DNA of 64,000 nucleotides from Minisyncoccota bacterium. Its GTDB lineage: Bacteria > Patescibacteriota > Minisyncoccia > Phycocordibacterales > UBA9973. Below, one piece after another: positions 2,511 to 59,530 of this stretch. The first letter of the stretch is position 1, and every line of letters begins with the position of its first letter. The translations under genes and the position numbers were made by a program. The stretch is taken from contig JBAZYS010000002.1 in the NCBI GenBank assembly GCA_041659205.1, forward strand, positions 1,627-65,626, written 5' to 3'. The notes beneath the pieces are model-generated. The model saw nothing but the letters and a program-made list of their open reading frames with translations, was not told where the DNA came from and ran no database searches.

Positions 2511-2588
2511 AAAATCTAGAATAATATTTCTAAAAACTCTTCCTCGTCATAACTTTTACTCAACACGCATAATTTTCTACTGAAAATT

Positions 2589-2650
2589 TGCTACGCTCGG
2601 CTACCCGCCTGCGCAATGTTTCTTAAAAGTTACGACTTCAACGAGTTTTT
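2589..2650 (+). repeat. About 60 nt element (TTGCTNCGCTCGGCTACCCGCCTGCGCAA...CAACGAGTTTT), copy 1; an inverted copy lies at 54993-55053
   Basis: A 22-mer, gctcggctacccgcctgcgcaa, has its exact reverse complement at 55033-55054 with similar flanks. Both copies sit immediately 3' of a gene in sense orientation (sodA, murI). Confidence 0.6.
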
Positions 2651-2663
2651 GGTTTTGAAATAT

Positions 2664-2746
2664 AACTTTTGGAGGGGGTTTTGAGGCTGGCGAGTCGAAA
2701 ACTTCAGGGTTTTTTAAGCTTCAAAAAATCCGTACCCGAAAAAAGT
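2664..2746 (+). repeat. Structured intergenic element, copy 1 of the 85-nt family
   Basis: AACTTTTGGAGGGGGTTTTGAG-[GGCTGGCGAGTC]-GAAAACTTCAG-[GGTTTTTTAAGCTTCAAAAAATCC]-GTACCCGAAAAAAGTT; shares its conserved single-stranded blocks and covarying stems with the six other copies. Confidence 0.7.
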
Positions 2747-2773
2747 TGATATTTCAAATAAAAAAAACTACTC

Positions 2774-4833: not shown

Positions 4834-5319
4834 TTATTTTTTATTTTTAAGCTCTACTGGATCATCGTCGGCAAAACTGGTGGCGATAATGTCTGCTCGT
4901 TCATTGTATTTGTCTCCGTTGTGACCTTTTACATAAGTCCATTTGGGTTTAAATTCTTCCGTAAGGGTGAAAAGCTCTTCCCAAAGTTCTTTATTCATAA
5001 CAGGTTTCTTGGCAGCATTGCGCCAATTATTTCTTTGCCAATTAAAAATCCATTCAGTGATTCCCAAAATTACATATTTTGAATCTGAAACAATCTCTAT
5101 GTGTGCGTTTATTTTGCCTGCCTGCGCAGACAGGTGTTTCTTGAGATATTTTAAGGCTCCTATTGGTGCAGAGAGTTCCATTTGATTATTCGTAGCATGA
5201 CATTCTCTTCCTCCAATTTCGAAATGTTCTTTACCATAAAGAAATACAGCGCCCCATCCAGCAGGCCCTGGATTACCCTTTGCCGCACCATCGGTATAGA
5301 TTTGGATTTTGTGCTCCAT
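4834..5319 (-). CDS. rnhA: Ribonuclease HI
   Basis: MEHKIQIYTDGAAKGNPGPAGWG...TNNQMEL...VSDSKYV...KGHNGDKYNERAD: RNase H catalytic DEDD pattern. Confidence 0.8.
   Translation of the reverse strand: MEHKIQIYTDGAAKGNPGPAGWGAVFLYGKEHFEIGGRECHATNNQMELSAPIGALKYLKKHLSAQAGKINAHIEIVSDSKYVILGITEWIFNWQRNNWRNAAKKPVMNKELWEELFTLTEEFKPKWTYVKGHNGDKYNERADIIATSFADDDPVELKNKK
5117..5134. repeat. GC-rich palindrome CCTGCCTGCGCAGACAGG, a member of a dispersed family, lying inside rnhA
   Basis: Near-perfect 18 bp palindrome in an AT-rich gene. It encodes SAQAG in frame. Related copies are at 36735-36754, 58288-58305, 2603-2616 and 55033-55046. Confidence 0.6.
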
Positions 5320-5321
5320 AT

Positions 5322-7055
5322 TTATAGTATATCAACTATTCTTAATCTTAGCTCTTCCCTGCCTCGAAACCTTGATAAATCAAAAGTGGTTAATAAATTT
5401 ACATTAATACCTTCAGCTAAAGTCTTTCCAAAAGAATCATGATTAGAAAAAAAAGAAATTGCCGTGGCTTTATGCTTATTTATATCTGAAAATTGAATTT
5501 CCAAATGCTCCCCAGATCCATTTTTACCAAACTTTTTTATTTTCTCAATTTTCACATTATCAAAAAGAAAAACGGGTTTCGAATTCCCGAGGCCAAAAGG
5601 AGCAAGCTTTTCTATTTCTCGCCAATTTTTCATATTTACGATACTTAAATCAGACTTCACGTCATAAGTTATTTCATCTTTTATAATATCCCTTTTCACT
5701 TTATGATAAGAAAGAGACAAGGCTTCTTCTAAGAAATGAATCTTCTCATTGTGCACAGTAAAACCTCCTGCAAGCTCATGTCCACCGAAATCGATAAATG
5801 ATTCAGAAGTTTCTGTCATTAGTTCTACGACTGACACAGAGCCATTACTACGGCAAGAACCCTTGATACAATCATTTTCGTCCTTTCCCCAAACAAAAAC
5901 GGGTTTCTTGTATTCATCAGAAATTTCCCCCGCCACTAAGCCTAAAATACCGACTCGCCAGCTTGGGTTACCTATTACTATCACTTCCTTCATTTCCCTC
6001 TCTTCAAATTTTTTATTCACTTCACGCATAATACTCTTCACAATGGTTTTTCTGTCGTCATTTATTTTTGATAAATGATCTGCGAGTATTCCAGCCTCTA
6101 CGTCATCATTCGTAGAAAGGAGTTCATAAGCCCGCATCGGGTCATCCATTCGAGATGCGGCATTCAAGCGCGGAGCAATCATAAAACCAATGTCATCCTC
6201 TGCTAAATATTTCTGCTCAATTTTCATTTTCGCAAGAAGTTTCTGCAATCCTGGGCGTGGAGACTTTCGTAAAACTTTCATCCCGAAATAAACCATCGCC
6301 CTATTTTCACCCGTGAGTGGAACCATATCAGAAAGCGTGGCAAGTCCTGCCATGTCGAGCATCCATTTTTCCTGCCCATCTTTTATTTTGAAATACTCTC
6401 CATACTTTTTTATAAAACCTTGTGCAAGTTTAAAAGCGACACCTGCCCCACAGAGCATCTTTTCACTATATTCATCTACTTTTGGATTCAAAATCGCATA
6501 AGCCCGAGGTAAAACTGCATGGGGAATGTGGTGATCAGTAATTATTACATCAATACCATCAACTTCTGCTTGAGCTACTTCTTCCACTGCCGTAATACCC
6601 AAATCAATAGTTATTAATAATTTCACCCCGTTTTTTGCAAACTGTTTTATCGCATCTAAATTTAGTCCATACCCTTCAGAGTTTCTCTGAGGAATATAAA
6701 CCTCATAATTTTTATATTTCAATAACTTAAACAAATCATTTAAAATAACCGCTCCAGGAATACCATCACAATCATAGTCAGCATAGATAACTATCTTCTC
6801 CTTTGCTTCCATTGCTTCAAATATTCGCACACAAGCGCGCTCCATATCCTTCATTTGGAAGGGGTCATTGAAATCTCTTGCATAGTCTGGGTTCAAAAAA
6901 ATCTCAGCATCTGCCGAGTTAGTAATGCCTCTTTTTTCTAACAATATCCGTAATAATTCCCCATACTTTTGCATGAATTGAATTTTAACATAAATAGAGT
7001 ACAATATAGAAAGTTTTTTGAAATATGAATTTTGAAGGGGTTTCGAGCCCGACAA
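5322..7055 (-). CDS. recJ: Single-stranded-DNA-specific exonuclease RecJ; the true start is possibly the internal Met near 6973
   Basis: DHH family motifs (DYDCDGIPGA, DHHIPH) and a DHHA1-like C-terminal region. Confidence 0.8.
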   Translation of the reverse strand: MSGSKPLQNSYFKKLSILYSIYVKIQFMQKYGELLRILLEKRGITNSADAEIFLNPDYARDFNDPFQMKDMERACVRIFEAMEAKEKIVIYADYDCDGIPGAVILNDLFKLLKYKNYEVYIPQRNSEGYGLNLDAIKQFAKNGVKLLITIDLGITAVEEVAQAEVDGIDVIITDHHIPHAVLPRAYAILNPKVDEYSEKMLCGAGVAFKLAQGFIKKYGEYFKIKDGQEKWMLDMAGLATLSDMVPLTGENRAMVYFGMKVLRKSPRPGLQKLLAKMKIEQKYLAEDDIGFMIAPRLNAASRMDDPMRAYELLSTNDDVEAGILADHLSKINDDRKTIVKSIMREVNKKFEEREMKEVIVIGNPSWRVGILGLVAGEISDEYKKPVFVWGKDENDCIKGSCRSNGSVSVVELMTETSESFIDFGGHELAGGFTVHNEKIHFLEEALSLSYHKVKRDIIKDEITYDVKSDLSIVNMKNWREIEKLAPFGLGNSKPVFLFDNVKIEKIKKFGKNGSGEHLEIQFSDINKHKATAISFFSNHDSFGKTLAEGINVNLLTTFDLSRFRGREELRLRIVDIL

Positions 7056-7107
7056 GGCGAGAACTTCAGGACCTTTTACGCTTCAAAAGGTCCGTACCGA
7101 AAAAATT
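7028..7107 (+). repeat. Structured intergenic element, copy 2
   Basis: AATTTTGAAGGGGGTTTCGAG-[CCCGACAAGGC]-GAGAACTTCAG-[GACCTTTTACGCTTCAAAAGGTCC]-GTACCGAAAAAATT. Its P3 stem carries compensatory CC/GG changes relative to other copies. Confidence 0.7.
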
Positions 7108-7126
7108 TATATTTAAAAAACTTTAT

Positions 7127-15610: not shown

Positions 15611-15621
15611 TTATAGTATAA

Positions 15622-15662
15622 CAAAAAATCCCCTCAATATAAATACTGATGGGGATTTTTTG
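15622..15662. terminator. Hairpin ATCCCC-N17-GGGGAT flanked by A/T runs on both sides; bidirectional rho-independent terminator
   Basis: Inverted repeat with poly-T on both strands, 3' of the 892 aa gene. It is part of a 199 bp block that is identical at 18404-18602. Confidence 0.6.
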
Positions 15663-15678
15663 TTAATAAAATATAATA

Positions 15679-18357
15679 TTAATTCTCAATAAATATTGGT
15701 TTCTTCTTCAGCTCTGTACAAGCAGTAGTTCCACATTTCCAAGTCCATTTCGAAGTGCTACTGGTACGATTGGTACTGCTGGTAGAACTTGGGACACAAG
15801 CATAGTGAGCTACTCCACAAACACCTCCTCCGGCATTCGTAAGATCACACGCTATTGGATTGCTTGCACCATTTATACATGCAAGCGAACCAAGAGGGTT
15901 ATTAGAATTACCACCAGGCCCCGTGCACCCTCCGTTACTACAAGGAACACAAGCAGATGAAAGATAAGCTAGGCCATCTGGACATTGACTACATGTGCCA
16001 GCATCGATTGCGCCATTGGCACAAGATGAAGCTGTACACTTGCCCCCAATCCAAGCAGTAGGAGTTGGTGTTTGTGAACAAACTGTTGTGACACTCACAC
16101 CTGAACCAGAAGGATACTCAGCGCTCGGTACAAGTGATTTTGCATTATTATAAAGATAAAATGTTCTACCTAAATATGGAACAGTAAAAAATAAAGCATT
16201 TCCAGATTGGCTTGAGGGTAGGGTAGAATTAGAAACAACAACATCAGACATACCAGAAGCAGTAATTTTTGTTGGAGATGCTTCAGGATTATTTATACTC
16301 CAGCCCAGATTTACGTTACAAGTACTTGCATTTAATGGAATCGTGCAAACAGAAGTCGAAGGAACAAGTGTACCGGACATCCCTGTAATGGTTTTACATG
16401 TGCCCGTAGGAACGTCCCAGCCAGTACCAGACGCACAAGTCACAGAAGTAGCGTTAACCGTACTCGAAGCAAGAGGAATTCCATTATTATAAAGATAAAA
16501 TGTTTCACCACCCCACTTAATAGCAAATGGAACTTTAGAACCAGTATTCCCTGTGGCCACAGTAACATTGACAGGTTTTGTAACCTTCGAAATAGCTACT
16601 GGGTTTGTGGTAGTCCAGGAAAAATTTATATTACAGGTGCTTGCCCCTGAAGCAATAACACAAGAAGAAGTCATTGGGGTAAGAGTACCTGTCATAGCTC
16701 CAGATTGACATGAACCAAGAACAGGATCCCAAACAGAACCAGAAATACAATTTGCTGAAGCAGCACTTGAAGCAAGCTCTACTCCTGTATTGTAAAGATA
16801 AAATGTCCTCCCCCCTTTAGGAACATTGAAAGATTGGGGCCCCCCGTTATCTCCAAATCCCTCAGTTCCACCTCCGGCACTAGAAACAGTAGAGCCTCCT
16901 ACGGTAGTAGGACTTGTTGTGGTCCAAGTAAGACTTACATTACAAGCACTTGCACCTACAGAAATAATACAAGAAGAAGGAGAAGGTGTGAGAGTCCCAG
17001 ACATTCCTGGAACAGTTTTGCATGTACCAGAAACTCCATCCCAAGCAGTACCTGAAGCACAAGAAGCTGCGGCCCACACAGGCCCAGCAAGCTGGACTGT
17101 ATTGTTATATAAATAAAAATCCCTGGAGCCAATGCCTGGAACGATAGGATAAGTTGTTGAACCTGAATTAAAATTTGAATTTGGCACAGTAACATTTGTA
17201 GGAGTTGTAACTGAAGAAATACCTTGTGGATTTGTAGTAGTCCAATTTAAAGTGGTAAGACAACTACTATTTCCTGCTGTAATGAAGCAGTCAGATGCCG
17301 TGAGCGTACCAGACATAGGGGGAGGAGCAGTAGTTACATTAACTGTCGCTGTCGCTGAACCACTCCCAGCAGCATTAGTACAAGTTAAAGTGTATGAATA
17401 CAATTTCACAGATGTTAGAACTCCTTGAGATACATTTGTTCCACTTACAGCTTTTAACCCTGACCAATCACCACTGGCAGTACATGAAGTTGGAGAATTA
17501 GTTGCACTCCAGGTAAGTGTTGGATTAACGACGTTTACCGTTCCAGAAATTGGATTTGCTGTAAGCGTAACGACAGGTGCAGAAGCAGATGCAAAATAAA
17601 AAGTATATGTACCAGCACCAGCAATATTGCCAGTTGTATAAACATTAGTATTTGTCTCCGCAGGATTTCCAGCAGCACCCCATCCACCCAATGGAGCTTT
17701 TAATTCATCAGAACTAGTGACAGATATTATAGCACCTGTTTTTGTAAAAGTTGTAGAAGTACCTGGAGGTACTGATTGAGAGCTTGGAGTAATAGTACCA
17801 GGACCATTCACTACTGTAGAAATTGGAAAAGTAGTAGCCGGGCAAGATACGGTTTCATATCTAACATTAGAAGTAGTACTACTATTACATTCACAAGAAA
17901 TATTATCTGTTTGACCTGGGCTCAAAGTACCTGAAGTTGTGACTGTCGCTCCTTTCCATGCAACCTTAGTATGAACTCCTGTAATATTATAAAGGTCTAC
18001 TTGAATAGATTCTGGTGCTCCCCCAGAATTTCCATAACAAGACTCTGTATAATTACATGTCCCTGCAACAGTTATTCTACATACTCCACCGACGGTAGGA
18101 GCCTCTTCGCAAAAACCTGAAGATCCATCAGGGGCAACAGTACAGGTTGTGCCGACAGGACAATAAGTAATATTTGGGGCCTGTCCCTCTGTTACACAAT
18201 GATCTAACCTTGTACTTGTCCAACAGCTATACAATGGAACCTGACTAGCGACACAAACGTATGCAGAAACATTTATTGGTTTAACTAAAACTGCTGTTAA
18301 TAAAACAAAAACAGCCAAAACAATAATTTTTAAAGATTTGTATTTCATAATACACAA
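15679..18357 (-). CDS. Giant secreted Cys-rich repeat protein (892 aa); paralog 1
   Basis: Signal peptide; at least four copies of a roughly 100 aa module (GMSGTLTP..SC.I..GAS.CNV.L.WTT.NP ... FYLYNN). The C-terminal about 47 aa are identical to those of the 1017 aa paralog. Confidence 0.7.
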   Translation of the reverse strand: MCIMKYKSLKIIVLAVFVLLTAVLVKPINVSAYVCVASQVPLYSCWTSTRLDHCVTEGQAPNITYCPVGTTCTVAPDGSSGFCEEAPTVGGVCRITVAGTCNYTESCYGNSGGAPESIQVDLYNITGVHTKVAWKGATVTTSGTLSPGQTDNISCECNSSTTSNVRYETVSCPATTFPISTVVNGPGTITPSSQSVPPGTSTTFTKTGAIISVTSSDELKAPLGGWGAAGNPAETNTNVYTTGNIAGAGTYTFYFASASAPVVTLTANPISGTVNVVNPTLTWSATNSPTSCTASGDWSGLKAVSGTNVSQGVLTSVKLYSYTLTCTNAAGSGSATATVNVTTAPPPMSGTLTASDCFITAGNSSCLTTLNWTTTNPQGISSVTTPTNVTVPNSNFNSGSTTYPIVPGIGSRDFYLYNNTVQLAGPVWAAASCASGTAWDGVSGTCKTVPGMSGTLTPSPSSCIISVGASACNVSLTWTTTSPTTVGGSTVSSAGGGTEGFGDNGGPQSFNVPKGGRTFYLYNTGVELASSAASANCISGSVWDPVLGSCQSGAMTGTLTPMTSSCVIASGASTCNINFSWTTTNPVAISKVTKPVNVTVATGNTGSKVPFAIKWGGETFYLYNNGIPLASSTVNATSVTCASGTGWDVPTGTCKTITGMSGTLVPSTSVCTIPLNASTCNVNLGWSINNPEASPTKITASGMSDVVVSNSTLPSSQSGNALFFTVPYLGRTFYLYNNAKSLVPSAEYPSGSGVSVTTVCSQTPTPTAWIGGKCTASSCANGAIDAGTCSQCPDGLAYLSSACVPCSNGGCTGPGGNSNNPLGSLACINGASNPIACDLTNAGGGVCGVAHYACVPSSTSSTNRTSSTSKWTWKCGTTACTELKKKPIFIEN

Positions 18358-18409
18358 ATTATACTACAAAATAAAAAATGTGTGAGGAAGTTATTCACAA
18401 AAACAAAAA

Positions 18410-18438
18410 ATCCCCTCAATATAAATACTGATGGGGAT
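18410..18438. terminator. Duplicate of the 15628-15656 terminator hairpin
   Basis: Identical sequence, located 3' of the 1017 aa paralog. Confidence 0.6.
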
Positions 18439-18460
18439 TTTTTGTTAATAAAATATAATA

Positions 18461-36200: not shown

Positions 36201-36216
36201 AAAATATTATAAATAC

Positions 36217-36300
36217 AACTTTTAAAGGGGGTTTCGAGGCTGACGAGCCGAGAACTTCAGGATTTCTTAAGCTTCAAGAAATCCGTACCCTTTAAAAGTT
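36217..36300 (+). repeat. Structured intergenic element, copy 3
   Basis: AACTTTTAAAGGGGGTTTCGAG-[GCTGACGAGCC]-GAGAACTTCAG-[GATTTCTTAAGCTTCAAGAAATC]-CGTACCCTTTAAAAGTT. The outer stem covaries (TTTAAAGGG/CCCTTTAAA). Confidence 0.7.
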
Positions 36301-36456
36301 AGTATTTATTATAAATTTTCTAAACTATACAAACACTTGCCTTAAAAAACCCTTGATATATAATGTATGGGTATCAATAATAAGGGTTAAATGTCACGCC
36401 AAAGGCGGACAGGGTCGAAGGATTATAAAATTATAAAAATAACTTATAAAAAACAC

Positions 36457-36729
36457 ATGAATAAACAAGCATTAGCTGAATTAGTACATGGAAAGCTCGG
36501 TGGTACAAAAGTACAAGCTGAGGAAATCGTTGACTCATTATTTGACGCTATCATCCAAACATTAAAAAAGGGAGGTGAAGTTTCAATCGCAGGTTTTGGT
36601 ATCTTTTCTGTAAAGGCAAGAGCTGCAAGAATGGCTCGCAATCCAAAGACTGGAGAGCAAGTAAAAGTAGCTGCAAAGAAAGTTCCAAAATTCCGAGCTG
36701 CAAAAGGTTTGAAAGACATGGTTGCTTAA
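36457..36729 (+). CDS. hup: DNA-binding protein HU
   Basis: MNKQALAELVHGKLGGTKVQAEEIVDSLFDAI...GFGIFSVKARAARMARNPKTGEQVKV: HU/IHF fold. The internal Met at 36457 is preferred over the ORF-track start at 36391. Confidence 0.8.
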   Translation: MNKQALAELVHGKLGGTKVQAEEIVDSLFDAIIQTLKKGGEVSIAGFGIFSVKARAARMARNPKTGEQVKVAAKKVPKFRAAKGLKDMVA

Positions 36730-36734
36730 TTTTT

Positions 36735-36754
36735 ACCTGTCTGCGCAGGCAGGT
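36735..36754. repeat. GC-rich palindrome ACCTGTCTGCGCAGGCAGGT (family member)
   Basis: Near-perfect 20 bp palindrome just 3' of hup. It is the reverse complement of the copy in rnhA. Confidence 0.6.
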
Positions 36755-36805: not shown

Positions 36806-36830
36806 TTTATCTAGATTTTTTGGAATATAT

Positions 36831-36912
36831 CTTTTGAAGGGGGTTTCGAGGCTGACGAGCCGAGAACTTCAGAATTTTTTAAGCTTCAAAAAATTCGTGC
36901 CCGAAAAAAGTT
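36831..36912 (+). repeat. Structured intergenic element, copy 4
   Basis: CTTTTGAAGGGGGTTTCGAG-[GCTGACGAGCC]-GAGAACTTCAG-[AATTTTTTAAGCTTCAAAAAATT]-CGTGCCCGAAAAAAGTT. Confidence 0.7.
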
Positions 36913-36926
36913 ATATTCCAAAAAAT

Positions 36927-37493
36927 CTAATATTTTCGAATCACCGCTTTCAAAACTGCATTTATGTTTAAAGAGTGCACAGGATAGATTGGTTTATAGT
37001 TTTTATTCGCTGGCTCGAGCCATACTTTTGCCCCAACTTTACGAAAGTATTTCATCGTAAACTCCCCATCCACTTCAGCGATGACTATCTGCATATCTTT
37101 CGCAGCAGTCGCTTTCTCTACGAGCACCATATCTCCCTTTTCAATGTGCGCGTCGATCATAGAGTCACCGTCGACTTCAAGCATATATGTCAGTGATTTA
37201 TTTTTTATTAAAAGGTCATCTAGCTTTATTGTATCTACCAATTCCTCTTCCACTGTGGCTGGAAATCCTGCGGTAACAAAACCAAGCATTGGCACTTCTC
37301 CGAAGGTTTCAGCTGGAATAAGTCTACCCAAATGATCTTTCCCTACGAGCCCTGCCTCTATTAATTTCTCCACAACTTTAAATACAGCATTTTTTGATTT
37401 GAAATTAAAGAGCTTCAGCATTTCAGAATATGTCGGCATCCTTTTATTGTCTCCGTAGAATGACTCTAATTTTAGCTGATAGGTATTCTTCAT
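36927..37493 (-). CDS. lexA: LexA repressor (S24 peptidase)
   Basis: N-terminal winged HTH; C-terminal S24 motifs (VDGDSMIDAHIEKGDMVLV ... KYFRK). Confidence 0.85.
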   Translation of the reverse strand: MKNTYQLKLESFYGDNKRMPTYSEMLKLFNFKSKNAVFKVVEKLIEAGLVGKDHLGRLIPAETFGEVPMLGFVTAGFPATVEEELVDTIKLDDLLIKNKSLTYMLEVDGDSMIDAHIEKGDMVLVEKATAAKDMQIVIAEVDGEFTMKYFRKVGAKVWLEPANKNYKPIYPVHSLNINAVLKAVIRKY

Positions 37494-48844: not shown

Positions 48845-48860
48845 AAACGGTAATATAATG

Positions 48861-48936
48861 TTTTTTAGGGGTTTTGAGCACGACGGTGCGAAAACTTCAG
48901 GATTTTTTAAGCTTCAAAAAATCTGTACCTAAAAAA
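48861..48936 (+). repeat. Structured intergenic element, copy 5
   Basis: TTTTTTAGGGGTTTTGAG-[CACGACGGTGC]-GAAAACTTCAG-[GATTTTTTAAGCTTCAAAAAATC]-TGTACCTAAAAAA. The outer stem covaries (TTTTAGGG/ACCTAAAA). Confidence 0.7.
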
Positions 48937-48958
48937 TATTATATTACGGTTTTTACTT

Positions 48959-54080: not shown

Positions 54081-54094
54081 AACCTTTAGAACAT

Positions 54095-54176
54095 AACTTT
54101 TGCAGGGGTTTTGAGCTCGGCGGAGCGAAAACTTCAGAATTTTTTAAGCTTCAAAAAATTCGTACCGAAAAAAGTT
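54095..54176 (+). repeat. Structured intergenic element, copy 6
   Basis: AACTTTTGCAGGGGTTTTGAG-[CTCGGCGGAGC]-GAAAACTTCAG-[AATTTTTTAAGCTTCAAAAAATT]-CGTACCGAAAAAAGTT. Confidence 0.7.
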
Positions 54177-54222
54177 TATGTTCTAAGAGTTTCACAATTT
54201 ACTTTGTGCTACAATTATTAAA

Positions 54223-54993
54223 ATGAAAATCATAAGCTGGAACACAAATGGACTACGGGCAACAGCAAAACAAGGCTTTTTTGTTCCCCTTTTCAAAGAT
54301 GAAAAACCTAATATTTTATGCCTTCAAGAAACAAAAGCTGAACCAGATCAGCTTCCAGAAGATGTCCGCAATGTAAAAGGTTATTATTCATATTTTTCAC
54401 ATCCCAAAATTAAAAAAGGCTACAGTGGAGTAGCTATTTATACTAAAGAAAAACCAAAAGAAGTTTTCTATGGAATGGGCATAAAAAAATTGGATGATGA
54501 AGGCAGGCTTCTCGGTGTAAAATTAAAAAATTATACAGTGATAACTGGGTATTTCCCTAACGGGGGGCAGGGACCCCATAGACTGAAATACAAATTAGAA
54601 TTTTACGATGCCTTTTTAAAATTTATATTAAAACTTCGCAAAAATGGTGAAAATGTCATTTTTTGTGGGGACGTAAATACCGCCCATGAAGCCATCGACC
54701 TCGCTCGCCCTAAAGCAAATGAAGAAAATACAGGATTCTTGCCAATAGAGCGTGCCTGGATTAGTAAAGTAATTGAAAATAACTTTTTAGATATTTATAG
54801 AAAATTCTATCCTGGAAAAGTCGGCGCCTATACTTATTGGGATATAAAAACACGAGCCCGAGACAGAAATGTCGGATGGCGTCTAGACTATTTTTTTGCA
54901 GATGCAAAAATCGTTCCAAAAATAAAAAATGCTGGAATGTTATCAGACTATTACGGCTCAGACCACTGCCCTATTTGGATACAACTTAATTAA
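54223..54993 (+). CDS. xth: Exodeoxyribonuclease III
   Basis: MKIISWNTNGLRA ... LQETK ... SDHCPI: AP endonuclease family. Confidence 0.85.
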   Translation: MKIISWNTNGLRATAKQGFFVPLFKDEKPNILCLQETKAEPDQLPEDVRNVKGYYSYFSHPKIKKGYSGVAIYTKEKPKEVFYGMGIKKLDDEGRLLGVKLKNYTVITGYFPNGGQGPHRLKYKLEFYDAFLKFILKLRKNGENVIFCGDVNTAHEAIDLARPKANEENTGFLPIERAWISKVIENNFLDIYRKFYPGKVGAYTYWDIKTRARDRNVGWRLDYFFADAKIVPKIKNAGMLSDYYGSDHCPIWIQLN

Positions 54994-55053
54994 AACTCGT
55001 TGCAGGTGTAGTTTTTATGAACCCTTGCGCAGGCGGGTAGCCGAGCAGAGCAA
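54993..55053 (-). repeat. Inverted copy of the 2589-2650 element, 3' of murI
   Basis: TTGCGCAGGCGGGTAGCCGAGC is the exact reverse complement of 2595-2616, with similar flanks. Confidence 0.6.
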
Positions 55054-55106
55054 TTTTTTAGTAAAAAAATATGCGTGGTGAATAAAAACTATACCAAAAA
55101 AGAGTT

Positions 55107-55901
55107 TTATATTTCAATTAATCCTGGTTTAATCTTTGCTCCAAACCATTTAGAAGTAAGTATTTCTACGGTTTTTGTCTTGTCTGTAACGAGAATTTTA
55201 ACACTTCCCTTTTTTGAAAGCTTTTGAAATATTTCTTCATGTTTTTTAAGATATTCCTTGAGTTTTTTGGGTATTATTTCGTCCTGAGAAATTATTTTAA
55301 TATTTTTAGGTAAAAATTTTCTTATTTGTCCTTTAAATATAGGATAGTGCGTGCAACCAAGAATTAAAGCATCTAATTTTTTATTTAAAAAAGGTTGCAA
55401 ATATTTTTTGATAAATGGCAGAGCATTTTTTATTTCTCCTTCTTCTGCGAGAGCCACCAGGAGTGGCGCAGCATTTTGGAAAATTATTACTTTTTTGTTT
55501 ATTTTTTTAATTTCTTGCGGAAAAGTATTGGAGTCAACAGTTCCCTTTGTCCCTAAGACCCCTACTCTCTTAAATTTAGCAGCTTCTTCTGCAGCCGGGA
55601 TCAAAACTCCCAATACTTTTCTCCCAGGGAAATTCTTAGGTAAATATTCCTGTTGTATTTTTCGCAAAGCCCGAGCTGAAGATGTATTACAGGCAACAAT
55701 AACAATAGCGCAATTTTCTTTACGGAAAAGATAGTCCACACATTCTCGCGTAAATTCATACACAGCTTCATGCGAACGGTTTCCATAAGGCACCCTTTTG
55801 GTATCACCTAAATACACATAATCGTATTCTGGCATTACTTTTACTATTGATTTCGCAATCATAAGCCCTCCTAAACCTGAATCAAAAATTCCTATCTTCA
55901 T
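55107..55901 (-). CDS. murI: Glutamate racemase
   Basis: IGIFDSGLGGL...VACNTSS...GCTHYP. Confidence 0.85.
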   Translation of the reverse strand: MKIGIFDSGLGGLMIAKSIVKVMPEYDYVYLGDTKRVPYGNRSHEAVYEFTRECVDYLFRKENCAIVIVACNTSSARALRKIQQEYLPKNFPGRKVLGVLIPAAEEAAKFKRVGVLGTKGTVDSNTFPQEIKKINKKVIIFQNAAPLLVALAEEGEIKNALPFIKKYLQPFLNKKLDALILGCTHYPIFKGQIRKFLPKNIKIISQDEIIPKKLKEYLKKHEEIFQKLSKKGSVKILVTDKTKTVEILTSKWFGAKIKPGLIEI

Positions 55902-56002
55902 ATTTTTATAATAACATAATCTGCAAAATGAAAAAGTTACATTTTTAAAGCCTTGCGCAAGAGCTTAGAAAATAAAAATGGTAATCCATTTATTATTTTC
56001 TT

Positions 56003-56037
56003 GAGCGACGAGCAGTTCGCTGGCGAAGCTTCGCCAG
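56003..56037 (+). repeat. Degenerate variant of the 85-nt element (GAGCGACGAGCAG...CTGGCGAAGCTTCGCCAG)
   Basis: Keeps the GAG-hairpin block and the AAGCTTC loop, but the P3 stem is GC-rich (CTGGCG/CGCCAG). Confidence 0.35.
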
Positions 56038-56053
56038 ATAGATTGCTTTCAAA

Positions 56054-56758
56054 ATGCAACTTTTTCATTTTGTAGATTTATGGTATATTTTATACATGAG
56101 CCACGCAAGATTAGAACAATTATCCGACGGAATTTTCGCAATAGTAATGACCGTGTTAGTTTTTCAAATTAGACTACCTGCCATCTGGGGCCCGATAGAC
56201 AATATGGGTCTTTGGTTCGAAATCAAAAAACTATTCCCTCTTTTACTTAGTTACGTTTTGGGCTTTTCTTTACTCTTCACATATTGGAGAGCGCACCATT
56301 TCTTTGTCTCTATTTACGCAAAAAATGTAGACTCAAGGCTCACAAACATAAATGCTTTATTTTTTATGCTTATAAGCCTAGTGCCCTTCTCCGCTAGTGT
56401 CCTCGGTAGCTTCAGTAGCAACGAACTTTCTATAATACTTTTCGGCATACATATTACCCTAATCGGCCTTACTTTGTATTGGATGAGAAGATATGTACTT
56501 TTCTCTGAACATATAAAAAACCCTGAAATAACAAAAAGAGAAATCCGAGGCAGTACTATCCGCACCCTAATCCCAGTTGTCTTTGCATTAATCGCTATGC
56601 CGCTTTCTTTTTTAAGCATAAAACTTTCTTTATTTTTATTTACCCTCGCTGTAATCTTCAACCTTTCTTCTTATAGCACGAAACTTTTTGAAAATATTCT
56701 AAAGACTCTTCACCATATGTTTTTCGGTGAAGACAAAAAAGGCCACTTCGCAGATTAA
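56054..56758 (+). CDS. DUF1211 (TMEM175-like) membrane protein
   Basis: Signature RLEQLSDGIFAIVMTVLVFQI, a second-half repeat, and six TM helices. Confidence 0.6.
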   Translation: MQLFHFVDLWYILYMSHARLEQLSDGIFAIVMTVLVFQIRLPAIWGPIDNMGLWFEIKKLFPLLLSYVLGFSLLFTYWRAHHFFVSIYAKNVDSRLTNINALFFMLISLVPFSASVLGSFSSNELSIILFGIHITLIGLTLYWMRRYVLFSEHIKNPEITKREIRGSTIRTLIPVVFALIAMPLSFLSIKLSLFLFTLAVIFNLSSYSTKLFENILKTLHHMFFGEDKKGHFAD

Positions 56759-56774
56759 AAATTCCCCAAAATAC

Positions 56775-56856
56775 TTTTTGTAGGGGTTTCGAGAGCGACG
56801 GCTCGAGAATTTCAGGATTTCTTAAGCTTCAAGAAATCCGTACCATAGAAAAGTTG
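56775..56856 (+). repeat. Structured intergenic element, copy 7, nested in an extra 11 bp inverted repeat ATTCCCCAAAA/TTTTGGGGAAT at 56762-56870
   Basis: CTTTTTGTAGGGGTTTCGAG-[AGCGACGGCTC]-GAGAATTTCAG-[GATTTCTTAAGCTTCAAGAAATC]-CGTACCATAGAAAAG. Confidence 0.7.
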
Positions 56857-56927
56857 TTTTGGGGAATTTTTACTTCATCTCACAAGTATTTTTCTACTGA
56901 AAAATCTCGCGAGCCCTCCTCGCCTCG

Positions 56928-58541
56928 TCAGGCTCCGGCCTTGCGATCGGGTCCCTTGCCCGATCTCACCCCATGCTTCTCGTGAAGCTTTGCGACTTCT
57001 TCTTCTTCAAGCTCTTCTTTTTTCTCTTTTCCACGTAGGCCGAGGACTTTGAGCTCAGCATCACCAAGCATATTTAATGATTTTACTAATCCAGATAAAT
57101 GACTTACCGTATTTTTCTCTGGCGCATCCAAAACTTCCTCTAAAAGAGCGTTTAAAATCCAGCCCATTCTAGGTCCAGGAGTAATTCCCAGCTCTTTAAT
57201 CATATATTCTCCATTAATCTTCAGTTGTCCCACAGAAATAGGGTCACGAAGAGCTTCTTCTATCATCGCGAAGTATTTTCTTAGCCGATAAGGTGCTTCT
57301 TTTTTATTCATTCCTACCCTATCGCACTCACGGACATTCATCAATGTCCAAATATTTTCTTTACCAACTTTCACAACAATTCTTCGCACCGCAGAAAGCG
57401 TAATTAATTCAGTGTCCGAAAAAAACATATGCATACGCACAAGTTTTTCCACAAGATCAATTTCTTTTTTAGGGAATTTTAATCTCTCCATTATTTTTTT
57501 TCCCATCCTTGCGCCAATAACTTCATGACCATAAAAAGTATATTTCTTTTTTCCAGAACCCGCCTCTGCAAGCCTTCTGGATCTAGGTTTTCCAATATCA
57601 TGGAAAAGAGCAGAAAGCCTTATTTCTAAAGGCCAATTTTTGTCTGTAGCATGCTGCAAAGCATGCAGTAAATGATTCCAAACATCATAGATATGCTCAC
57701 CGGATTGTTCACATCCGATTCCCTCTTCCAGCTCTGGAATAATATTTTTTAATAAATTAAATTTCTGCAACATTACAATTCCACTTGCAGAATTTGGTGA
57801 CATAATTATTTTTACAAACTCATCACGAATTCTTTCTTCCGATATTTTTTTTAACAATTCAGAATTTTTTAAAATACTTTCCATCGTCTCATGTTCTACA
57901 GAAAAATTTAATTGGCAAGAGAAACGGACAGCCCTCAGCATTCGAAGAGCATCTTCTGTAAAACGGTCATCTGGGTTTCCTACTGCTTTTAAACTCTTGT
58001 CCTTAATGTCCTTTAGGCCATCAAACAGGTCAATTAACTGTCCTTTAGACTTGCCCGCCGAATTGGAGGGATTTAAGGCTAAGGCATTAACAGTGAAATC
58101 CCTTCTTTTTAGGTCATCTTCCAGCTTATCACTGAATTTTACCTCGTCAGGATGCCTAAAATCACTATATTTTGTCTCAGTTCTATATGGTGTAACCTCA
58201 ATTATCTTATATTCTGATGTTCCATGTGAAACATCATCCAATGGTGTTTCACGAGAAACGTTATTGGAAAGTGTTTCGCATGGAACACCTGCCTGCGCAG
58301 GCAGGCACACCCCTACTGTCCCGAAGGTATTCTCATAGACCGTCTTTTCAAAAAGGCTAATTATCTGCTCTGGCTTGGCGTTAGTTGTAATGTCCCAATC
58401 CTTTGGTTCCTTGTCCATCAAAAGATCTCGGACACATCCACCGACAAGGTACACCTCAAAACCAGCTTTCTCTAATGTAACTGTTACATGTGAAACTTCC
58501 TTAGGAATTTTCGCTATTAAATTTTTAATTGTTAAGTCCAC
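56928..58541 (-). CDS. cca: CCA-adding enzyme / tRNA nucleotidyltransferase with an HD domain; GTG start 8 nt after tRNA-Gly
   Basis: GGCVRDLLMDKEPKDWD ... TEDALRMLRAVRF ... HD motif. Carries an in-frame roughly 30 aa insertion encoded by palindromic repeats at 58218-58305. Confidence 0.8.
   Translation of the reverse strand: MDLTIKNLIAKIPKEVSHVTVTLEKAGFEVYLVGGCVRDLLMDKEPKDWDITTNAKPEQIISLFEKTVYENTFGTVGVCLPAQAGVPCETLSNNVSRETPLDDVSHGTSEYKIIEVTPYRTETKYSDFRHPDEVKFSDKLEDDLKRRDFTVNALALNPSNSAGKSKGQLIDLFDGLKDIKDKSLKAVGNPDDRFTEDALRMLRAVRFSCQLNFSVEHETMESILKNSELLKKISEERIRDEFVKIIMSPNSASGIVMLQKFNLLKNIIPELEEGIGCEQSGEHIYDVWNHLLHALQHATDKNWPLEIRLSALFHDIGKPRSRRLAEAGSGKKKYTFYGHEVIGARMGKKIMERLKFPKKEIDLVEKLVRMHMFFSDTELITLSAVRRIVVKVGKENIWTLMNVRECDRVGMNKKEAPYRLRKYFAMIEEALRDPISVGQLKINGEYMIKELGITPGPRMGWILNALLEEVLDAPEKNTVSHLSGLVKSLNMLGDAELKVLGLRGKEKKEELEEEEVAKLHEKHGVRSGKGPDRKAGA
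58218..58305. repeat. Composite palindromic insertion inside cca: three 14 bp palindromes (GTTCCATGTGAAAC, GTTTCACGAGAAAC, GTTTCGCATGGAAC) with 27-28 bp phasing, then the 18 bp perfect palindrome CCTGCCTGCGCAGGCAGG
   Basis: Read directly from the sequence. Translates in frame as ...CLPAQAGVPCETLSNNVSRETPLDDVSHGTSE. Confidence 0.7.
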
Positions 58542-58549
58542 CTATTTAG

Positions 58550-58620
58550 TGCGGCTAGGGAGAATCGAACTCCCGTCTCATCCTTGGCAAGGACGTGTTC
58601 TACCACTAAACCATAACCGC
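58550..58620 (-). tRNA. tRNA-Gly (GCC); CCA not encoded
   Basis: Manual cloverleaf: acceptor GCGGTTA/TAGCCGC, anticodon loop TTGCCAA, T-arm GGGAGTTCGATTCTCCC. Confidence 0.8.
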
Positions 58621-58796
58621 TAGTTATTTCTAATAAAAACGACCCAAATATAACAACAGAGTCATATTTAAAGTAAATCATTTTTAACTTATCAATTATA
58701 GTATTAAATTTAACTTATTGCAATTTTAGGATATATGCTTATAAAATAAGGGGGTTTTGATAATTTTAAAATATGATGTATAATCAAAAGCAATAT

Positions 58797-58868
58797 GCAC
58801 CCGTAGTGAAATGGATATCACAACAGTCTTCGGAACTGTCGTTGGGGGTTCGAATCCCTCCGGGTGCA
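58797..58868 (+). tRNA. tRNA-Arg (TCG)
   Basis: Acceptor GCACCCG/CGGGTGC, anticodon stem ACAGT/ACTGT with loop CTTCGGA, T-arm GGGGGTTCGAATCCCTC. An extended -10 box (TGTATAAT) lies 14 nt upstream. Confidence 0.75.
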
Positions 58869-59079
58869 CAATATTTGCAAATTAATAATATAAAATCTGT
58901 CCTTTACTTAAAGCTTTGTTATACAAGGATTTTAGTGAAATATATACCAAAATGTGGATAACTATGTGAGTAATGTTTATAAAGGACACGTCTAGAAGTT
59001 GTCTTTAAGCACTAATTTTGTTAAAATATGCTTATAAAATATGGACATTTTAGTAAAAGACACAAAAATTCATCAAAAT

Positions 59080-59120
59080 GTTTCACGTGAAACGAAAATA
59101 GACGATGTTCCATGTGAAAC
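59080..59120. repeat. Two 14 bp palindromes (GTTTCACGTGAAAC perfect; GTTCCATGTGAAAC) with 27 bp phasing, upstream of yraN
   Basis: Same family as the array inside cca. A further copy, GTTTCTCGTGAAAC, at 59309-59322 lies inside yraN. Confidence 0.7.
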
Positions 59121-59530
59121 CCATTAAAATGCCTAAAGTTTTTACATCTAACACACAAAAAACTGGAGAAATTGGAGAAAATATAGCTGCAAAGTTTCTC
59201 ATGAAACATGGTTTTTCAATTCTAGATAGAAACTATACAAAAAAATGGGGTGAAATTGATATAGTCGCCGAAAAAGCCTGCAGACTATATTTCATTGAAG
59301 TTAAAAGCGTTTCTCGTGAAACGCTGAGCAATGAGACATTGAATAGTTATAGGCCAGAAGATAATATGCACCCCTGGAAACTTAAACGCTTGTCACGGAC
59401 AATCCAAACATACCTTCTGTCAGAAAAAGTCTCAGATGAAAAGGAATGGCAAGTAGATTTATTGGTAGTGTTTCTTGATACAAAAAACAAAAAAGCAAAA
59501 ATAAAAGTAGTCAGTGATATTATTTTATGA
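59105..59530 (+). CDS. yraN: YraN/UPF0102 family endonuclease (start may be the Met at 59129)
   Basis: GEIGENIAAKFLMKHGFSILDRNYTKKWGEIDIVAEK...YFIEVKS: the UPF0102 pattern. Confidence 0.65.
   Translation: MFHVKPIKMPKVFTSNTQKTGEIGENIAAKFLMKHGFSILDRNYTKKWGEIDIVAEKACRLYFIEVKSVSRETLSNETLNSYRPEDNMHPWKLKRLSRTIQTYLLSEKVSDEKEWQVDLLVVFLDTKNKKAKIKVVSDIIL

Follow-up and report, generated by a model that had tools for sequence, protein, structure and literature searches.

The closest analogues of the sequence described here, an 18-bp palindrome that we call P18, are the Rickettsia palindromic elements (RPEs) and the GC clusters of yeast mitochondria. RPEs are selfish palindromic DNA that lies in frame in housekeeping genes with no relation to one another; the genome is small and AT-rich, and the extra peptide sits at places that the fold tolerates. 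They form several families, each encoding its own conserved peptide, and occur in Rickettsia only; Ogata et al. (2000) reportedly give further RPE features used in this comparison. Their length is about 100 to 150 bp (PMC10969869). Mitochondrial GC clusters (e.g., GC42/GC18) are GC-rich palindromes of AT-rich genomes that are patchy at homologous sites, have constrained stems and occur as units that merge or nest (PMC4478555). These organellar sequences have short flanking direct repeats (AG/ACT), are exchanged between species by homologous recombination that leaves co-conversion tracts and, in some cases, lie occasionally in frame within var1/rps3 (PMC4478555).

Several other families of short repeats can be set beside P18. 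REPs and REPINs (mobilized by RAYT, a Y1 HUH enzyme) and IS200/IS605-derived PATEs are short hairpin repeats that do not move by themselves. Single-strand transposition creates no target duplication and can allow precise excision. REPs are imperfect palindromes of 20 to 40 nt with a conserved head tetranucleotide, extragenic and often arranged as inverted doublets, with tens to hundreds of copies in genomes in which a RAYT gene is present. IS200/IS605-type elements leave no target duplication and seamless empty sites, insert 3' of a specific tetra- or pentanucleotide and carry subterminal imperfect hairpins together with guide sequences. MITEs depend on a DDE transposase, create a target-site duplication and have a parent insertion sequence with identical terminal inverted repeats. 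Finally, the DUS of Neisseria, the USS of Pasteurellaceae and HIP1 of cyanobacteria are over-represented short motifs, and some of them are palindromic or come in pairs. They are also found within genes, in tolerated frames; point mutation creates them under molecular drive, and a genome contains hundreds to thousands.

We analyzed P18 in a 64-kb stretch of DNA (the window) from a small, groundwater-type bacterium of the Candidate Phyla Radiation (CPR) that resembles Paceibacteria/Nomurabacteria and has about 38% GC. Like RPEs, P18 is a selfish palindrome in frame in unrelated housekeeping genes, and the genome is again small and AT-rich; the P18 peptide falls in a low-pLDDT loop in rnhA and in a hypervariable loop in cca. 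Unlike RPEs, it is only 18 bp long, perfect and unspaced, and occurs across the superphylum and beyond, here in a Paceibacteria-like CPR host. The parallels to GC clusters are nested hairpins (found in L052 and L014), a mosaic rnhA allele, conserved stems and patchiness, whereas P18 is bacterial, unspaced, mostly in open reading frames (ORFs) and free of direct repeats. Like REPs and PATEs, P18 is a short hairpin repeat that does not move by itself, but it differs from REPs in being perfect, unspaced, low in copy number and mostly within ORFs (65 of the 105 low-GC copies listed and two of the three in the window). It resembles IS200/IS605-type elements in its seamless empty sites without target duplication but shows just a purine^pyrimidine preference, and its unit is the hairpin alone. 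In contrast to MITEs, no duplication was seen at four empty sites, and in contrast to DUS, USS and HIP1, P18 is rare per genome and arises by block insertion. An earlier note, made from the sequence of the window alone, had proposed a REP/RPE-like mobile hairpin. The general class holds, but REP proper fails on extragenic location and RPE proper on length. Full-text searches, with most subscription journals outside their coverage, returned no description of the P18 sequence or of palindromic in-frame insertions in CPR.

P18 in the window

The pattern CCTGYCTGCGCAGRCAGG matched three times in the window (Table 1) versus 0.02 matches expected from shuffles, and three matches were reached in 0 of 100 shuffles. 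No further match was present in the window, even when up to three mismatches were allowed. The palindrome family is thus real. P18 itself, CCTGCCTGCGCAGGCAGG, is a perfect unspaced palindrome of 2 x 9 bp with arms reading (CCTG)2C and a hairpin stability of -6.5 kcal/mol as DNA. The copy in cca has this perfect form, exactly where it had been reported. The copy next to hup is indeed the exact reverse complement of the rnhA copy, although it spans 36736-36753 and not 36735-36754; the same point variant is common to both, in opposite orientations. The two coding copies lie in minus-strand genes and encode L-S/P-A-Q-A-G, in agreement with the shared xAQAGx peptide pointed out before (LSAQAG in rnhA and LPAQAG in cca). 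The GC content of the window is 37.8%, in place of the 33% given earlier for the genome. Rfam recovered four tRNAs only from the window, and P18 matched no known RNA family.

Table 1. Copies of P18 in the window, the genes that host or adjoin them, and neighboring 16-mers
Feature	Position	Strand	Description
P18 copy 1	5117..5134		+ strand reads CCTGCCTGCGCAGACAGG, 1 mismatch from perfect P18; within rnhA, encodes LSAQAG
P18 copy 2	36736..36753		CCTGTCTGCGCAGGCAGG; 7 nt past the hup stop codon, upstream of a terminator hairpin
P18 copy 3	58288..58305		perfect palindrome CCTGCCTGCGCAGGCAGG; within cca, encodes LPAQAG
rnhA (RNase HI)	4834..5319	-	hosts copy 1; Pfam RNase_H, E = 1.7e-37
hup (HU DNA-binding protein)	36457..36729	+	copy 2 just 3'; Pfam Bac_DNA_binding
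cca (CCA-adding enzyme with HD domain)	56928..58541	-	hosts copy 3; Pfam PolyA_pol (two stretches), PolyA_pol_RNAbd, HD, tRNA_NucTran2_2
Three parS-like 16-mers	58218..58287 (starts 58218, 58245, 58272)		27-bp spacing, within the cca loop; third one directly adjoins copy 3

Precise insertion at rnhA, hup and cca

All three window copies are precise 18-bp insertions relative to empty sites in relatives. In rnhA, LSAQAG lies between KKH and KIN. The empty site of two relatives (L201 and L233) reads AA(A/G)CA^TAAAATAAAT, so that the window copy is an exact 18-bp addition, and the closest orthologue (P0121) is 6 amino acids shorter. In an AlphaFold2 model of the rnhA product, the insert (residues 63-68) covers the end of helix 44-66 and part of the loop 67-72. 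It is the lowest-confidence interior block of the model, with a mean pLDDT of 61 and values below 50 at residues 67-69, and the C-terminal residue alone scores below it. The insert is accordingly predicted to occupy a low-confidence surface loop.

The allele in rnhA is a mosaic. It matches the empty-site relative L201 at 100% over about 116 nt 5' of the insert, a tract that stops exactly at the insert; in the 21 nt 3' of the insert, the allele is nearer to L232, which bears an insert. The L232 copy carries the point variant of the window, indicating descent and not a new insertion. P18 is patchy among close rnhA orthologues, the same pattern as in cca.

For hup, five other contigs encode an identical HU protein and all lack the unit. 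The empty site in one relative (L204) reads TTTA^TCTCGAGATAAAAA, and the reconstructed empty site of the window is a palindrome too, TTTTTATCTCGAGATAAAAA.

In cca, LPAQAG separates GVC from VPCET. Removing the 18 nt of copy 3 leaves GGG GTG TGT GTT CCA TGC GAA ACA, that is GVCVPCET, as in the orthologues L004 and L046; the nearest orthologues (P0002-P0004) are without P18. A search for proteins identical to the window cca product gave no record. Across 120 orthologues the loop concerned, flanked by FGTVGV and EVTPYR, is hypervariable; it splits the PolyA_pol head domain into two Pfam stretches. P18 is present in 9 of these 120 orthologues, which belong to several groups whose nearest relatives lack it, and in one of them (P0045) it sits at a second position in the loop. 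In five cca orthologues the P18 DNA is 18/18 or 17/18 identical, with rare GC-rich codons, and the flanks differ widely at synonymous sites (roughly 20-25% by eye). Conservation acts on the P18 DNA, not on the peptide. Orthologues without the AQAG segment were thus found for both rnhA and cca, as were hup relatives without the unit, which upholds the proposed insertion in frame in coding genes, and the orthologues sharing LPAQAG carry the palindromic DNA itself.

At four empty-site comparisons (the three window copies and L005), we found neither a target-site duplication nor a flanking deletion. Among the matches listed, the end of the left flank equaled the start of the right flank over at least 4 nt at just 2 of 104 sites. 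P18 enters DNA as an exact 18-bp unit without target-site duplication.

Variant forms were also recovered. A sister 20-bp form consists of 10+10 nt, CCTGCCTGCC joined to GGCAGGCAGG. In the cca gene of L050 it comes with a +1 nt as compensation, in line with an event at the DNA level. The arm forms found were 9+9, 10+10 and a single 13+9; junctions of 8+8, 9+10 or 11+11 were absent, non-coding DNA included. At the same sites, 24-bp variants (L234 and L039) keep the outer stem with a changed center, and point-mutated and decayed copies are present at orthologous sites.

Occurrence, flanks and reading phase

The scan of other genomes took one genome per species and selected exact matches; it is incomplete and biased towards perfect copies. 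It returned at least 125 P18 copies in at least 120 stretches, so the family extends well beyond the few copies of the window. The copies among the matches listed were 99 perfect, 26 single-variant and 0 double-variant, and a further count by number of mismatches (83 perfect, 25 with one mismatch, 1 with two and 1 with three) shows few decayed copies. Named CPR lineages made up about 69 of the 120 stretches (~58%) among the matches listed, including Paceibacteria, Microgenomates, Saccharibacteria, WWE3 and Dojkabacteria. The unit is thus present in many Patescibacteria (CPR) lineages, and also in some other phyla; in Bacteroidota it lies within larger dispersed repeats with conserved flanks. 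Its sources are independent projects and assemblers, with Litoribacter ruber and Rosettibacter primus among the cultured isolates. Relatives of the window carry 3 copies in 1.05 Mb, about 3 per Mb, and a second copy lay inside the same 8 kb at 5 of 120 loci among the matches listed. No neighborhood is common to the copies, which sit in genes without relation to each other, in loops, in 3' regions and in repeats.

Among the matches listed, the flanks were unrelated except for a purine at -1 and a pyrimidine at +1, each in about 80%, and no target consensus was found past this purine^pyrimidine step. Non-coding copies show the same bias, as does the synonymous third position of the Gly codon. 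Among the matches listed, insertion within existing hairpins was modestly enriched, with stems of at least 7 bp at 6.7% of the sites versus 1.9% of controls; the preference for centers of existing palindromes is weak, the overall rank test being not significant. P18 favors a purine^pyrimidine step, and similar hairpins nest in one another.

P18 amounts to six codons without a stop in any frame on either strand. Because of this, its insertion into coding DNA can leave the protein untruncated. The 65 in-ORF copies mentioned above come from loci with GC <= 0.52 and ORFs of at least 120 codons among the matches listed. Their phases were LPAQAG in 48, PACAGR in 10 and CLRRQ in 7, versus the 33:20:48% expected from purine^pyrimidine steps (p = 4e-12). 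This phase bias indicates that the encoded peptide is merely tolerated.

We looked for a mobilizing enzyme, a parent element and a vector. Neither a transposase domain nor another candidate enzyme was found in the 12 window ORFs checked, all ordinary housekeeping genes. Between paired copies (L124 and L199) there was no transposase either, the genes apparently being ordinary housekeeping genes as judged from translations read by eye, without domain search. No full-length parent element with 9-bp ends was found: CCTGCCTGC and GCAGGCAGG did not occur as separated ends at any locus in the genome fragments covered, which were the 64 kb of the window and 8-kb pieces of other genomes. A phage vector was likewise set aside: IMG/VR gave 25 stretches, mostly with 58-67% GC, where chance matches are likelier.

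Origin of the insertions

With a probability of roughly 60%, we interpret P18 as a discrete, non-autonomous, ultra-short palindromic insertion element. Its movement would need a trans-acting enzyme recognizing the dyad or the hairpin. Because no target duplications were seen, the most plausible candidates would be a single-strand (HUH/IS200-IS605-like) activity, a serine-recombinase-like activity or insertion coupled to break repair. Selection would retain mainly copies in surface loops and in the LPAQAG phase, and homologous recombination would also pass filled alleles from one related lineage to another. The perfect symmetry may be preserved by young age, continual turnover or hairpin-templated self-correction. 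Several points count against this interpretation: no transposase or other candidate enzyme was found among the genes checked, 18 nt leave scant room for the guide or recognition sequences of known hairpin transposases, and ~3 copies per Mb are unusual for REP- or MITE-like families. In cca and rnhA, recurrence at one site may stem from alleles exchanged by recombination instead of repeated transposition, and the L232 copy of rnhA points to descent. A recombination or restriction site had also been suggested for the palindrome; nothing supports restriction, and recombination is backed by the single mosaic tract in rnhA only.

The perfect conservation of P18 could alternatively reflect a cellular function of the site, either as an operator for a dimeric protein or as a DNA or RNA hairpin signal, kept by selection and spread mainly by homologous recombination of alleles. 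A perfect unspaced 2 x 9 bp dyad is what would be expected of a homodimer site, and the stable hairpin, the mosaic rnhA allele and the 24-bp variants with their conserved outer stem fit as well, as does perfection kept while synonymous flanks diverge and few copies decay. We nevertheless consider this unlikely. The copies arise as precise insertions and not as point mutations, they are few per genome and scattered over unrelated settings, the nearest relatives manage without them, and the phase bias speaks for a peptide that is merely tolerated.

Somewhat less probable still is a scar of double-strand-break repair, in which a (CCTG)n-type template serves to extend both ends by 5'-CCTGCCTGC. 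Blunt joining of the equally extended ends would yield an unspaced perfect palindrome without target duplication, as observed. The (CCTG)2C arms, the 10+10 and 13+9 forms and the identity tract that ends at the rnhA insert like a conversion tract would also be accounted for. However, only two discrete symmetric forms were seen, the intermediate junctions being absent even from non-coding DNA, the empty-site comparisons show no flanking deletions, and the Bacteroidota units lie inside larger repeats with conserved flanks. To our knowledge, no end-extending enzyme of this sort is known in bacteria.

An uptake or recombination signal of the DUS/USS type, enriched by preferred uptake in competence-dependent bacteria, appears very improbable. 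The patchiness of the same filled allele across lineages, the mosaic rnhA allele and a ComEC competence protein encoded in the window are in line with it, and USS are known to show a reading-frame bias within coding DNA. DUS and USS, however, occur at roughly one per kb, far above the density of P18, which moreover arises by insertion instead of point mutation and is also found in Bacteroidota repeats and other phyla. Lastly, only the small copy number in the window favors a chance effect of codon usage or an error of sequencing or assembly. Both can be dismissed given the shuffles, the identical DNA in non-coding positions and in orthologues, the independent projects, assemblers and cultured isolates, the mutated and decayed copies at orthologous sites and the strong phase bias.

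If P18 is indeed a palindromic insertion element, then genome-reduced CPR, usually described as poor in mobile DNA, carry an ultra-short element family whose copies lengthen essential enzymes, RNase HI and the CCA-adding enzyme among them, by six residues. This would put a lower bound on the size of mobile DNA and point to a new hairpin- or dyad-specific insertion activity. It would also provide a cheap marker for recombination and gene flow among uncultivated lineages, and CPR proteomes contain puzzling loop insertions and low-complexity peptides of the "LPAQAG" type that it would partly explain. P18 would give bacteria an equivalent of the GC clusters of mitochondria and the RPEs of Rickettsia, and one solved mechanism could inform the others. 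A bolder proposal, which we put forward tentatively and hold for less probable than the insertion element as such, is that P18 is the smallest mobile DNA unit described, an 18-bp "nano-element" consisting of the recognition hairpin alone. The enzyme responsible would be specific for the dyad or the hairpin, be shared across CPR and extend to Bacteroidota and others. It would copy the unit into purine^pyrimidine steps without duplication, and loops of essential proteins would be remodeled repeatedly. There may also be a guild of tiny GC-rich hairpin elements, with 18-, 20-, 23- and 30-bp families nesting mutually and in parS-like palindromes.

The association suggested with 14-bp palindromes, which are parS-like, did not hold in general, TGTTYC starting 0 of 198 flanks among the matches listed; such neighbors are local to cca, yraN and rnhA of this clade. 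The 16-mers in cca have 1-3 mismatches to TGTTNCACGTGAAACA and are translated as VSHGT, VSRET and VPCET. A suggested link with an 85-nt element (~85-105 nt) fell away as well, the hup copy alone lying near one; the ~105-nt D1 element is a separate insertion, and relatives lack D1 and P18 independently. The supposed half-sites at 2589-2650 and 54993-55053 have just GCCTGCGCA in common with the palindrome and are part of a different conserved dispersed motif, GCTCGGCTACCCGCCTGCGCAATG, present in many relatives.

Precise insertion of P18 at purine^pyrimidine steps

The 18-bp GC-rich palindrome (P18; pattern CCTGYCTGCGCAGRCAGG) had three matches in the window, whose GC content is 37.8%, and no further match was found there even when 3 mismatches were allowed. 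Dinucleotide-preserving shuffles gave a chance expectation of 0.02 matches in the window. The cca copy is one of only two perfect unspaced palindromes of 18 bp in the window, and the rnhA and post-hup copies are exact reverse complements of each other and hence have one point variant in common. The host genes of the two coding copies are on the minus strand, and the copies are read as LSAQAG (rnhA) and LPAQAG (cca). Pfam matched the products to RNase_H and to a PolyA_pol/HD CCA-adding enzyme, the head domain of which was matched as two stretches.

Comparison of filled and empty alleles (with and without P18) shows that all three copies are precise insertions. The insertion into coding genes proposed in the earlier note is borne out, as orthologues without the AQAG segment exist for both rnhA and cca. 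The closest RNase HI orthologue (P0121, 91% identity) is, like many others, exactly 6 residues shorter (KKH-KIN), and in its DNA (L201) the 18 nt of P18 are the sole gap in the alignment with the window gene. This empty site reads AAGAAACA^TAAAATAAAT, where ^ is the insertion point, and a second empty allele (L233) agrees with it. Removing the 18 nt from cca gives GGG GTG TGT GTT CCA TGC GAA ACA, translated as GVCVPCET, a sequence present in orthologues. At hup, P18 is absent from 5/5 contigs encoding an identical HU protein, and the empty site in locus L204 reads TTTA^TCTCGAGATAAAAA. The copy in locus L005 lies in a conserved intergenic stretch that reads TTATTAA^AATATC in 7 relatives, the window among them. 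None of the filled/empty comparisons at rnhA, hup, cca or L005 revealed a target-site duplication. An AlphaFold2 model of RNase HI from the window (mean pLDDT 84.7) places the P18 peptide where helix 44-66 ends and within loop 67-72, in a part predicted with less confidence than any other interior block; the cca insert sits in a loop that is hypervariable across 120 orthologues.

P18 inserts as a block, free of duplication, at purine^pyrimidine steps. Among the matches listed, the 104 low-GC sites have a purine at -1 and a pyrimidine at +1 in ~80% each; beyond these positions their flanks carry no other information, and direct-repeat flanks occur at chance level. The bias is a feature of the DNA, since it holds at +1 of copies read as LPAQAG, the synonymous third base of a Gly codon (pyrimidine in 37/47), and in non-coding copies (72% purine). 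P18 lies within a pre-existing hairpin with stems of at least 7 bp at 6.7% of sites compared to 1.9% of controls, a modest enrichment, and a rank test for insertion into existing hairpins was not significant.

The ~116 nt just 5' of the rnhA insert (window 5135-5250) are 100% identical to L201 in a region averaging ~81%, and this tract ends at P18, the behaviour expected of a recombination or co-conversion tract. Across 21 nt on the 3' side, the window gene has 2 differences from the insert-bearing L232 compared to 6 from L201, and the L232 copy has the same T variant as the window rnhA copy. This mosaic, at one locus, points to short-patch homologous recombination as the route by which the filled allele was acquired. 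A less likely, rival explanation is that P18 is a break-repair scar left by templated end extension.

Distribution, reading phase and conservation

P18 is widely and patchily distributed. When one genome per species was scanned, at least 125 copies turned up in at least 120 stretches. Among the matches listed (125 copies), 99 are perfect palindromes, 26 have one of the two single variants allowed, and no copy combines them. CPR/Patescibacteria account for ~69/120 stretches among the matches listed, as counted from record titles, and include WWE3, Woese-, Gottesman-, Roizman-, Beckwith-, Shapiro-, Nomura-, Kaiser-, Yonath-, Wildermuth-, Zambryski- and Uhrbacteria, Saccharibacteria and Dojkabacteria. 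The non-CPR matches listed include two cultured isolates and Bacteroidota, where P18 lies within larger dispersed repeats with conserved flanks. Matches in a few high-GC genomes plausibly arose by chance. The calculated per-site probability of the perfect 18-mer in 40% GC DNA is ~1e-12, so that the CPR matches cannot be chance. Coincidence and artefact are excluded as the source of the P18 copies. In IMG/VR, 25 stretches carry P18, on contigs mostly of 58-67% GC.

The cca and rnhA homologues came from metagenome-assembled genomes of Paceibacterota, Nomurabacteria and Minisyncoccia. In 80 cca-centred loci of relatives (1.05 Mb), we found only 3 further copies, which gives a typical density of ~3 per Mb; by comparison, the window is rich in P18 (3 copies in 64 kb). 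Another rival reading, and an unlikely one, is that P18 is an uptake signal. P18 is present in 9/120 cca orthologues, spread over several separate groups, and absent from the window's closest relatives (P0002, P0003 and P0004, whose identity outside the loop is 91-95%). In P0045, it occupies a second position, within one of the parS-like sites of the cca loop. The rnhA gene is equally patchy, with LPAQAG, LSAQVG and LPAQTG alleles, and in L234 the site holds a 24-bp variant in which the outer stem is retained (CCTGCCTCAACTGGGCAAGGCGGG).

Copies within genes are subject to a reading-phase filter. Among the matches listed, 65/105 copies in loci with a GC of at most 0.52 lie in ORFs of at least 120 codons, read as LPAQAG (48), PACAGR (10) or CLRRQ (7). 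Purine^pyrimidine steps in window genes predict 33:20:48%; the observed phases depart from this expectation (p = 4e-12), so a target effect does not account for the bias. P18 could enter any frame, since its 18 nt make six codons and no frame contains a stop; selection would then keep mainly the benign peptide, in loops.

P18 is conserved at the DNA level. In five cca orthologues with LPAQAG, its DNA is identical at 18/18 (four) or 17/18 bases, with GC-rich codons, and synonymous sites around it differ by ~20-25% (estimated by eye). What is conserved is the DNA and not its peptide. A further rival view, also less likely, is that P18 is a functional site at the protein or RNA level. Decayed copies are rare: we counted 83 perfect, 25 one-, 1 two-, 1 three- and 8 four-mismatch copies, compared to shuffle expectations of 0, 0, 0, 0.1 and 1.9.

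Candidate mechanism and known systems

Movement of P18 may depend on an enzyme that acts in trans and specifically recognises the dyad or hairpin. Pfam found ordinary housekeeping domains only, and no candidate enzyme, in 12 window ORFs. The genes between paired P18 copies, judged from their translations, also look like ordinary housekeeping genes, with no candidate. Because duplications are lacking and empty sites are seamless, single-strand (HUH/IS200-IS605-like) or serine-recombinase-like chemistry fits better than DDE transposition, a comparison that draws on what is established about these families. Unlike the HUH/IS200-IS605-like and serine-recombinase-like systems, P18 has no guide sequences or target motifs.

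Among the closest known systems are the Rickettsia palindromic elements, selfish in-frame palindromes of ~150 bp (PMC10969869), and the GC clusters of yeast mitochondria, which are patchy, stem-constrained and merging, are exchanged by recombination with co-conversion tracts and, unlike P18, are flanked by AG/ACT repeats (PMC4478555). REP/RAYT elements are also close, but their tested defining features were not found in P18. Full-text searches yielded no description of the P18 sequence, nor of such elements in CPR, and P18 has a real chance of representing a new and minimal class of mobile DNA.

Related hairpins and other repeats

Positions of P18 copies, related palindromes and other repeats
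Feature	Sequence	Position
P18, rnhA	window	5117-5134
P18, 3' of hup	window	36736-36753
P18, cca	window	58288-58305
20-bp sister palindrome	L022; L050; L175	12396; 3809; 23
Asymmetric 13+9 form	L190	393
Split tRNA-Gln-like fragments	L117; L128; L134; L129	1725-1770; 3530-3575; 362-400; 6775-6825
parS-like sites (8)	window	58218-59323
MITE-like copies (7)	window	2658-2762, 7020-7124, 36211-36315, 36823-36927, 48851-48955, 54088-54192, 56766-56870
117-nt inverted pair	window	2533-2649 / 54992-55108
~161-bp intergenic unit	window	55918-56078
Second perfect 18-bp palindrome	window	56020-56037
Further palindromes CAAGACCTAGGTCTTG, GAAATGGCGCCATTTC, ACACATATACGCCATGGCGTATATGTGT	window; L017; L025	45719-45734, 50008-50023; 18081; 17977
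Palindrome ACACATTTACGCCATGGCGTAAATGTGT	L074	14643
Repeat-bearing region	window	15620-21540
Adjacent ORFs of this region	window, minus strand	15679-18357, 18461-21514

Related hairpin families are nested in one another. The 20-bp sister palindrome CCTGCCTGCCGGCAGGCAGG is P18 with a central CG, and in L050 it lies within cca alongside a compensating +1 nt; an asymmetric form was also found. Members of a 30-bp hairpin family (e.g., CCTGTCCGCCAAAGCTTTAGCGTCGGCGGA, read as LSAKALASA) occupy the exact centre of parS-like sites (GTTCCACG|TGAAACA) in the cca loop of L021, L024, L034/L035, L049, L052 and L074 and in yraN of L002. A second hairpin is nested in the first in L052 cca, and in L014 yraN a P18-like hairpin itself contains an insert. 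The same cca and rnhA loops are also filled by further GC-rich hairpin inserts, of the PSP..GEG and other types. Four CPR lineages have a tRNA-Gln-like 5' fragment interrupted by the 18-mer (TGCCGGrtCr|P18|TCTAATGGTAGGA), ~30-400 bp upstream of an intact tRNA-Gln gene. This arrangement could be an integration scar or the remnant of insertion into a tRNA followed by partial duplication.

The parS-like sites (TGTTNCACGTGAAACA, at most 3 mismatches) number eight in a 1.1-kb stretch of the window, in 5' cca, tRNA genes and yraN. Loop DNA was recovered for 78 cca orthologues (among L001-L080), and each has 1-6 of these sites; in the loop that separates FGTVGV from EVTPYR, they are read as VSRET, VSHGT or VPCET. 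The minimal loop (FGTVMVIQEDVSRETLRQIEVTPYR) has one. The arrangement resembles a conserved, centromere-like array carried inside a coding loop.

A MITE-like element of ~105-118 bp, with 24-nt terminal inverted repeats in the copy at 36812-36929, is missing from the hup-lexA spacer of relatives. It is probably the "85-nt element" whose association with the palindrome the earlier note wished to see tested; the two proved to be unlinked. The 117-nt inverted pair is 80% complementary and includes GCTCGGCTACCCGCCTGCGCAATG, a motif dispersed in many relatives (L001, L014, L025, L037, L042, L062, L065 and L073). Rfam gave no match for the pair at gathering thresholds, and the pair may represent an unannotated small RNA or a mobile-element end. 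The second perfect 18-bp palindrome, CTGGCGAAGCTTCGCCAG, lies in a unit that has 34-nt inverted repeats (91% complementary) at its ends and is flanked by a racemase gene and a TMEM175-like gene. Further unspaced perfect palindromes could be operator-like sites or more mini-elements; among them, the 28-bp ACACATATACGCCATGGCGTATATGTGT and the L074 palindrome differ by a symmetric change that keeps perfection. Finally, two big adjacent ORFs have long internal repeats in common, among them several 47-104-nt families and a segment of 207 nt that is 99% identical.
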